A stretch of DNA of 64,000 nucleotides, taken from contig OX597814.1 in the NCBI GenBank assembly GCA_951406725.2, positions 20,584,001 to 20,648,000 of the forward strand, in the 5' to 3' direction. The notes beneath the pieces are model-generated. The model saw only the letters and a program-made list of their open reading frames with translations. It did no database searches and was not told where the DNA came from. The stretch is from Octopus vulgaris. Lineage: Eukaryota. The position numbers and the translations under genes are program-made. This document shows positions 20,241-26,822 of this stretch, piece by piece (position 1 is the stretch's first letter; the number at the start of each line of letters is the position of its first letter).

Positions 20241-20877
20241 CCACATCAGTGAACCTGAGTTCTAGAAGTGTTGTGTTCCACCCGCCCTACCCCAACAAAT
20301 CAAATTACATCTCTCCCAAACTATCTCTTCTTTTCCTCACATTTCCTCTTCATACACTACGATTATCTCCCACTCTTCAATCCTGTCCTCACTACCCTGC
20401 TCACAGTATTGTTGCTTTCCCCACCCCCTCTATATATCCAGGTTCTCAGCAGTTACAATATTCCCCTACCCCCACCTTGGCAATACCTTGATGGCACCTG
20501 CCACCATATATCTCTTTCTTCCTTACTCTACTATCCCATTTATGCTCTGATCCCTGTACATTGTGAGATTACCTTTCACTGCCATCTCTCTCTTGCTGTC
20601 TCCCACTCTCACTCTCTCTCCCACTCTGCAGGGTGGTTGGTATTAGAAAGGACATCCCACCATAAAAGCCATGCCAAAACAGACACAGGAGTCTGGTGTA
20701 GGCTCCTGCCTGGCCAGCTCTTGTCAAACCATCCAACCCATGCCAGTATGGAAGGACGACGTTAAACAAAGATGATGATGATAGATACCAAAATCAATAA
20801 CACTGGAATATAAATACTTTGAAATATAAAAATGAGAATTATTAAAAATAACTGCTAAAAAAACTAAATTCTCTAAC

Positions 20878-20951
20878 CTTGAATCTTTTTACTTTTCGTA
20901 TCTTCATTGATTCGGACACGATTCACAATACAGCTAGCTTGCTGAGCATAT
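20878..20951 (-). CDS. KIF14: KIF14 exon 10 (end of motor, neck)
   Basis: ccttaa|A TAT GCT...CAA G|gttaga. Encodes (R)YAQQASCIVNRVRINEDTKSKKIQ. The acceptor is non-canonical. Confidence 0.88.
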
Positions 20952-21860
20952 TTAAGGCACATTAAAGAATATAATATATAATAAAACAAGAAGAAAAAAA
21001 AACACTATCATTTAAAAAAAATCTCAATAAATTCAATTTTAAAAAATTCTTGCAGCTTCCACTCTTTGATAATTTGATTACATTGTTACAAATACCCCAA
21101 AGCTGTTATATTTACTTTTCATGTATTACTGTCTATCATGAAGTGTCAAAAATTCTTGATTAACTTCTGACAAAATTTCACTGCACTGGAATTGTGTCAG
21201 TGACCAGGTCGCAGGAGTGCAACAAAATTTCTTGCCTTGATCCATCACTTGACTTAACACCAGTGTCTAGTACCTTGAGTAACTTTGGTGGAGTTCACTT
21301 CCTTTGCAAGCATTCAAGCCAGGTCTCTAGATTGAGGATATCTCCCACCCTCCACCTCAAAGATCCTCATGGATGCTGTCTTCCCACCTGACAATAAGAT
21401 TTTTTTTTTTTAAATAGACATTACTATTAAGAAATAACTAAAAGTGAATGTAACAATTTTTGTGTCTTCATAAATAACTAAACGGACTCTTCCACAACAT
21501 AATCCCTTCAGATTCAGCAAACTATCTCACACACCAATGCATTTGCCAAGTGAGTACAACTCAAAAATATATGGTATATCTAAAATGAGACAATGAAATT
21601 TGCAAGGTAGGAGTAATAGTGTAAAGAAAATATAAAATGAGGATCTGAAAAAAAACAAAGTAGATTTTAAAATGATGAAATTAAAATTAAACCCTAAAAC
21701 ATTAACTGCAAGAAAAATAGAAATAATTACGAAAAAAATTAATTATACATAATAATTTAAAACCGGAAATTAAGGATGCTTTGATATTTTTGGTATTACT
21801 TCTCATGTAATGAATGAAATGATGATAAAATAAAAGAAAGTGATGGCAATAAAAGGATAT
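20952..21860 (-). other. U12-type (minor spliceosome) intron with AT-AA termini, KIF14 intron 9, 909 nt
   Basis: 5' end ATATCCTTTT matches the U12 donor consensus. Branch-like TTCTTTAAT at 20969-20961, about 10 nt from the 3' end. No GT-AG join preserves the TLRYA motif. Confidence 0.8.
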
Positions 21861-21959
21861 CTGAGAGTACTTAGAGTCTCTTCACAGTGAATATTAGCAG
21901 GGCTGATGGTAGCAAGCATTGCTGTTCGAGAATTCCCACCAAGACTTTCTTTTAACAAC
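21861..21959 (-). CDS. KIF14: KIF14 exon 9 (followed by U12-type donor)
   Basis: ccaaag|G TTG...CTC AG|atatcctttt. Encodes [32 protein letters not shown](R). Confidence 0.93.
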
Positions 21960-21999
21960 CTTTGGAAAGAAAATATGCTCAGTGACACTAAAATGATAT

Positions 22000-22099
22000 C
22001 TGACAGTATAATAAAAGTTCATCCTAATGAATACTTGCCGGGCTTATGGTAGCAAGCATTGTTGTATGAGAATTCCCACCCAAATTTTCTTTTAATAGT
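22000..22099 (-). pseudogene. Tandem duplicate of KIF14 exon 9 (pseudo-exon or poison exon)
   Basis: Reads [24 protein letters not shown]. It is 100 nt versus 99 nt for exon 9, offset by 140 nt, and followed by ATATCATTTT. Confidence 0.9.
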
Positions 22100-22625
22100 C
22101 TCTGGGAATAATTATATGGAATTCATTAGTGATAAAGACATTTTGACTTATTTTAAAAATTTTAACATCAATAGGAAAAGGAATTACAAAGCTCATGACT
22201 GTATGGGATTCTGGTAAAGGAGAAGGGGTCAGTGAAATTATTTTTAATAATATATGTCTTCGTTTTTGCCAAAAATGATTTAAAATTGAGAAAGTTGGTC
22301 TTGCTATGAAAACAAATTTGAAATTATTATAAAGAAATGAAATTGTTAAAACTATGAGTATCTATATGAAAATAATTACAAAAGAAAAGCACAATAGATG
22401 GTCTTTTTTCTTTAATGAAATGACTGACCTGACAAACATTTTTAAAGGTATTTTTAATTATCTTCATGAAAAAATTAAAGTTGAAAGAAAAAAAGAAGTG
22501 AAAATGACTACCAAAAATTAAATTACAAATATTTGAATTTTTCTAACACATAAAAATCTAAAATTTCTCTTATATACCATTTAAATCTGAAGATTAATGC
22601 TTTTTTCTATAGTAATTAATTAGCT

Positions 22626-26694: not shown

Positions 26695-26822
26695 CAGGTT
26701 AATACAGAATCTCTGTATGGGATGAAGACCTTTTTCTTCTTGCTTGCGTTAGAAGATACCTCAGAAAGTAAACAAATAACTTTACCAAGTGTCATCAATG
26801 ATTTGTTGATATTAATACCTTC
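26695..26822 (-). CDS. KIF14: KIF14 exon 8
   Basis: tgcag|...TG|gtaact. Encodes [21 protein letters not shown]...[15 protein letters not shown](W). Confidence 0.96.

Follow-up and report, generated by a model that had tools for sequence, protein, structure and literature searches.

The 64,000-nucleotide stretch of DNA analysed here (the window) carries on its minus strand most of the gene for KIF14, a kinesin-3, and the intron between coding exons 8 and 9 of this gene contains a decayed tandem duplicate of exon 9, recognizable by its homology with the exon and its flanks, its lesions, its skipping in RNA and its intron-like rate of change. We lean towards an account in which one duplication created the copy, the copy was temporarily spliced as the either/or alternative to exon 9, and it now lies silent within the intron. 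The features on which this account draws are:

26695–26822, minus strand: coding exon 8, ending in the TG of a conserved Trp codon, with a GT donor; its end at 26695 joins the 21959/21960 side in both RNA contigs
22100–22118, minus strand: decayed acceptor of the copy, with two AGs, through which entry would fall at 22101 or 22099, and a purine-rich tract; crossed unspliced by a contig of run X11
22000–22099, minus strand: 100-nt duplicate of coding exon 9 of KIF14, decayed and left out by both RNA contigs
22033–22038, minus strand: proposed GC donor in the copy; where a G precedes it (22039), organisms E and F have T, as does the real exon
21960–21999, minus strand: 40-nt spacer between copy and exon 9, made up of ~17 nt of old U12 donor flank and the working U2 acceptor of exon 9
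21861–21959, minus strand: coding exon 9 (99 nt), which encodes the last part of the motor domain, placed by tblastn, protein matches and RNA contigs
20952–21860, minus strand: U12-type intron with AT-AA ends, 909 nt, with a U12-like branch motif at 20969–20961, RNA joints in X11 and X16 and matching proteins P0096 and P0098
20879–20951, minus strand: coding exon 10, placed by sequence, tblastn and RNA contigs

The gene was identified as KIF14 from its best sequence matches and from a layout of motor and FHA domains that fits this family member. Solved KIF14 structures are the best matches for exon 9, and exon 2 is 100% identical to P0001, a protein labelled at its source as Octopus vulgaris KIF14, 98% identical to that of O. 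bimaculoides and 85% to that of Argonauta. Placement of the coding exons by tblastn agrees with the exon numbering of the preliminary description, which had been made from the letters alone. KIF14 is a motor of cell division. Upstream of it lie open frames resembling exons of a neighbouring gene (59890–59540, 57136–56861 and 55303–55085, minus strand).

The likeness between copy and exon 9 is not a matter of chance, since self-blastn returns it with E 3.5e-19 over 130 letters. The preliminary description had reported a duplicate of exon 9 at 22099–22000 with two AGs, a decayed U12 donor and a 40-nt spacer, and all of these lie where it had placed them. Recounting codons 1–24 gave the same 6 synonymous and 4 non-synonymous differences (S5N, R11H, A13T and N22S; 13 of 72 letters differ), while 10 of the last 24 letters differ once the one extra base, which falls within the last 20 nt, is set aside. 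The first base of the copy is A and that of the real exon G, and the copy's donor ATATCATTTT carries a C>A change at +6 relative to the real donor ATATCCTTTT. As had been claimed, entry at either AG creates a TGA at the exon 8 junction, in 4/4 tested forms using the copy; entry at 22101, which gives 102 nt, still meets the junction stop, and a TAG follows at codon 25 (22026–22024). With its junction TGA, its TAG and its extra base, the copy is dead as a coding sequence. A-to-I editing of the junction stop, which had been suggested as a means of restoring the conserved Trp, was rejected: with two stops, two edits would be needed, the frameshift would stay, and 22099 is mostly unpaired in the local fold (0.08, weak).

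Three further observations concern the surroundings of the copy. Its upstream flank (22122–22100, minus strand) reads in frame as I-P-Y, an echo of the exon 8 end that is likely due to chance because these letters also agree with the flank of the real acceptor. A strong-looking unused acceptor with a branch-like motif, a pyrimidine tract and a CAG at 22211 (22235–22199, minus strand) lies 110 nt upstream of the copy; the 11 letters after this CAG equal a stretch near the exon 8 end, possibly by chance, and the X11 contig runs across unspliced. Comparing 24 exon pieces with the 3 kb around them revealed no duplicated exon other than exon 9, the five pieces of <85% identity falling outside blastn.

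The copy stretch occupies a single place in the genome (G000), and 20 of 24 listed runs contain all or part of it, with all 40 sampled words in three, one of them possibly the source. Single contigs of organisms E and F each span both copies in tandem, so that the copy is genomic and older than the E and F splits; together with the complete word sets found in runs of several samples, this disposes of the earlier caveat that the duplication might be an assembly artefact. We give practically no credence to an artefact, nor to a piece derived from another kinesin gene or from a processed mRNA. S5N and E26D are KIF1-type residues, and a flatworm unc-104 protein (P0100) matches the first 14 residues of the copy, as origin from another kinesin would have it. 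Such a motif match alone says little, because S-to-N is one transition, and the segment LLKENLGGNS, put forward earlier as a kinesin-3 form, has to be read in the same way: N5 does occur in kinesin-3s, but the change carries little weight. At the DNA level, 59 of 72 letters agree with exon 9 compared with at most 44 of 72 for each of 12 other kinesin-like loci, so the copy does not come from a paralogue, and no duplicated exon was found within 1.5 kb around these 12 loci. Against a processed mRNA, the sequence that follows the copy corresponds to the intron donor and not to exon 10.

Exon 9 is followed by a minor intron. The 909-nt joint seen in RNA is ambiguous by 4 letters, and because only the register 21860–20952 starts at a U12 donor, the intron has AT-AA ends, terminating in AA rather than AC or AG. 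It combines the U12 donor consensus, a branch motif near its end (judged by eye) and a spliced junction, the usual U12 and U2 site consensus and the general effect of a +6 change serving as background. P0096 and P0098 match the correct joint; 8 residues are missing at this point from P0001 and P0002, and P0003 continues into the intron, so that three of five full-length public cephalopod KIF14 proteins are mis-modelled. The Y-P-F of P0003 suggests, from the protein letters, the same donor in Argonauta. Introns of the AT-AN class (A-type) likewise combine AT-AA ends with a U12 donor (PMC1557818, PMC8280824); AT-AA ends are on record but rare, with 8 of 66 non-canonical U12 introns (PMC1557818 Table 2). 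No link between KIF14 and minor introns emerged: the text of PMC1557818 and PMC8280824 and the searched supplements of the latter contain no KIF entry, and supplement lists of other papers may name KIF14. Two other kinesin genes (L014 and L017; G000 C25:16224306 and C7:104179986) carry a GT donor of ordinary U2 look at the codon where KIF14 has its U12 donor, which suggests that the position of the intron is old and that its type has switched. Short repeats lie within 21160–21480 in the U12 intron, and many contigs from other places match them in all four runs.

The two copies sit 140 nt apart. Homology continues for 17 nt past the exon end (blastn) and for 12 nt before the exon (blastn; ~18 nt by eye), and the spacer consists of 17 nt of old donor flank and ~20 nt of old acceptor flank. 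Because homology to the two flanks fills the spacer, it represents the junction of one tandem duplication, and a single event of ~140 bp, comprising the exon and short flanks, probably made the copy. Such an event would itself produce the hybrid U2/U12 layout with its 40-nt spacing, no selection being needed. At birth, the upstream copy would have retained the old acceptor together with 17 nt of the U12 donor, and the downstream copy would have received ~20 nt of acceptor. Branch-like motifs lie in the spacer 20–23 nt from the AG of exon 9, and candidate branch points 18–21 nt from the U12 donor of the copy. With a U12 donor facing a U2 acceptor, and a branch point ~20 nt off the donor, the copies would not have been joinable to each other, and each mRNA would have carried one or the other. 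Spacing of <50 nt is counted as steric exclusion, and U2/U12 incompatibility is recorded in 5 of 629 human clusters (PMC5740500). The U2/U12-incompatible tandem pair of the preliminary description is present as a layout, and the arrangement of sites supports the view that it would have barred joint inclusion. While in use, the copy would have been purged of harmful amino-acid changes, with no new function required; donor (+6), first base and frame would have been lost later, before the split from organism F.

RNA counts were taken from X11 and X16, two of the six runs classed as RNA or possibly RNA that contain the stretch; they belong to different studies and their RNA status is guessed. The remaining four (X17–X20) hold 0.10–0.23 of the sampled words and were not counted as evidence. 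In both runs, a contig splices exon 8 directly onto 21959 and then skips 909 nt after exon 9 (8-9-10; depths 5.8 and 14.5). The proposed junctions into the copy were looked for and none occurred in the contigs of either run, which are low-depth assemblies from which rare and NMD-degraded forms are easily dropped. The data show that skipping of the copy is the main form, and rare or NMD-degraded inclusion is compatible with them. One 253-nt contig of X11 (22039–22288, depth 3.2) crosses the copy's acceptor unspliced. Its end at 22039 coincides with the end of a proposed 61-nt cassette, but its one leftover letter is unaligned, whereas splicing to 21959 should contribute a G that matches; this end was left out of the count. 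X16 contains an intronic low-depth contig of like kind at 21159–21310, so that pieces of this type represent background, and X16, with no cover on the copy, carries no weight as evidence by itself. Over 20840–22620, run X14 yields near-identical pieces as well as pieces 7–9% diverged and may be a mixed or heterozygous sample.

Organism F is represented by one contig covering 21749–22358, with 26 substitutions (25 used) and 5 gap letters. Relative to F, 4 substitutions and a single insertion fall within the 100 nt of the copy, and 19 substitutions and 2 other events within 371 nt of flanks (Fisher p=1). The copy diverges at the rate of its intronic flanks, and conservation above the flanking intron was not found (5 in 100 versus 21 in 371), in one comparison resting on one contig and five events in the copy. 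The real exon 9 shows 2 changes in 99 nt, both synonymous, and the spacer none in 40 nt. F's copy retains the stop as TAA and has a second frameshift near codon 3. Organism E is ~7–9% diverged, and its contig (depth 3.6) shows 19 substitutions and 2 extra letters over 21816–22079; only a minority of E's differences is listed, and E's copy is not readable from them.

These comparisons bear on a present role as a poison exon or NMD decoy, which the preliminary description had proposed. In this reading, the copy would sometimes be included (100, 102, 61 or 63 nt) and the junction stop would lower KIF14 via NMD. Every tested entry does lead to an early stop, as would inclusion of most dead copies. 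SCN8A 18N offers a precedent for a conserved poison partner exon (PMC8652244), and the copy's AGs and decayed donor are identical in the window and F; at the flank rate, zero change in these 20 signal letters has a probability of 0.31. Neither RNA run shows a joint into the copy, the sole contig lying on it is unspliced at the acceptor, its donor is without one consensus C, and the E piece holding the acceptor (22080–22178) gave no alignment at 85%. The GC donor was found at 22038 as described, but the preceding G is shared by neither E nor F; since 22039 has the real exon's letter in both, this G is likely new in the window lineage. We consider a live poison exon very unlikely. Of the earlier choice between a dead duplication and a decoy, death as coding sequence holds, and the decoy role finds no support.

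Whether the copy was ever under selection was addressed by simulation. When a dead copy is set against a live exon, ~40% of the differences should be synonymous, as the real exon adds its own, and against this null the synonymous excess gave p 0.057–0.128 (24 codons), 0.040–0.129 (27 codons) and 0.18–0.20 (whole exon). Taken alone, dN/dS is not significant (p 0.06–0.20). We further compiled the residues tolerated at each column from 70 distinct segments of 208 non-octopod kinesin-3 proteins, mostly KIF14 and KIF1B. For each of S5N, R11H, A13T, N22S and E26D, the new residue occurs at the same column among the 70 segments, and none of the 11 near-invariant columns in codons 1–24 has changed its residue. 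In this test, which is post hoc and was chosen after the data had been seen, a simulated copy dead from birth matched with p=0.0007 over 24 codons and p=0.014 over the full exon; omission of P0100, the only source of H11, raised these values to 0.018 and 0.054. About 22–27% of single changes give residues seen in relatives compared with 4/4 in the copy (p 0.004–0.049 given four changes). A single substitution separates the copy's TAG from a codon for Tyr, the residue that 94 of 208 proteins have at that column. The claim of a formerly functional alternative exon thus receives moderate support from the tolerated residues and none of significance from the synonymous excess, and we regard a past period of protein-level selection on the copy as fairly probable. 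Selection against inclusion of a damaged duplicate would suffice, with no new function of the copy implied. For a death of the copy at 0.045–0.07 per-site distance, the probability of no untolerated change in 24 codons is 0.15–0.05; its death would therefore have to be not much older than the E split.

The competing reading is that the copy was dead from birth, hardly ever spliced and drifting since the duplication, its first 72 nt kept by chance or by one old conversion with exon 9. The ~40% of synonymous differences expected even then and the whole-exon synonymous p of 0.18–0.20 agree with it, and duplicated exons fixed as alternative exons are highly infrequent (PMC8373072). Damage is uneven along the copy (13/72 versus 10/24 letters), a poor fit to simple decay after death without one complex tail event, and an old conversion tract would fit as well. 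No sign of recent gene conversion was found in F, whose two new real-exon changes are absent from its copy, and the four early residue changes, all seen in relatives, speak against a copy that never met selection. We hold this reading to be possible, though doubtful, and lean towards a copy that was once selected and later lost.

A tandem-motif scan of JGI metagenome contigs gave 7 loci, with no kinesins by tblastn, and a weak search for proteins with the copy's peptide gave 1 candidate, none scored. HMMER against 1.84 billion representatives returned 12 matches, none with the copy's residue set. Among 120 relatives of the exon 9 region, the column pattern was present in 118 and twice in none, the other two being checked by eye. 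No squid, cuttlefish or nautilus name occurs among the matches listed, in which some rows are unnamed, and no published report of the copy turned up in the papers searched, which lie outside subscription journals.

Decayed, unannotated exon duplicates are termed pseudoexons. Unannotated tandem exon duplicates in introns are known from surveys of human, fly and worm (PMC9013439, PMC8373072); like the copy, they are homologues of a neighbouring exon with its flanks and are not fixed as alternative exons, whereas the copy belongs to a mollusc gene and adjoins a minor intron. Interlocked U2/U12 mutually exclusive pairs are JNK (MAPK8/9) exons 6a/6b and TMEM87A/B exons 11/11a (PMC1874599, PMC8329584, PMC3584512). 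As in JNK, for which an origin from a single exon duplicated together with adjoining intron pieces has been proposed (PMC1874599), the copy has a U12 donor, here decayed, facing the U2 acceptor of exon 9, with a U2 intron upstream and a U12 intron downstream. KIF14 likewise has two tandem homologous exons for the same protein region, and its hybrid intron has the U12 donor and U2 acceptor layout, with a donor that carries C>A at position +6 and may no longer work. In JNK, both exons are open, expressed and tissue-biased, and the hybrid intron contains a long conserved pyrimidine tract; in KIF14, one exon is broken, the spacer is 40 nt, and only one isoform is seen in RNA (2/2 runs, whose contigs may miss rare forms). 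A U11-binding enhancer (USSE) was considered and rejected, since it requires two tandem intact donor motifs (PMC8329584).

We find it unlikely that a JNK-style either/or pair had an independent origin in the KIF14 motor of octopods, its second exon drifting to KIF1-type residues and the pair being either intact and spliced in some cephalopod lineage or acting here as a rare NMD-coupled brake. SCN8A exon 18N reportedly arose by duplication. Like the copy, it is a stop-bearing alternative to a coding exon, but its conservation spans fish to human and its splicing is abundant, whereas the copy is neither conserved above the intron nor seen included (PMC8652244).

The copy probably fits the starting point of a JNK-type pair while failing membership, being likely once used and likely silent now. 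For an exon between a U2 and a U12 intron, one short duplication would yield a mutually exclusive layout at once, and the KIF14 copy would be a clean example of the proposed origin of the JNK hybrid intron. Its own fate is loss, the common one. As a by-product, the end of the motor domain in P0001, P0002 and P0003 can be corrected at the AT-AA intron, and more octopod genomes could date when such a pair was born, came under selection and died.
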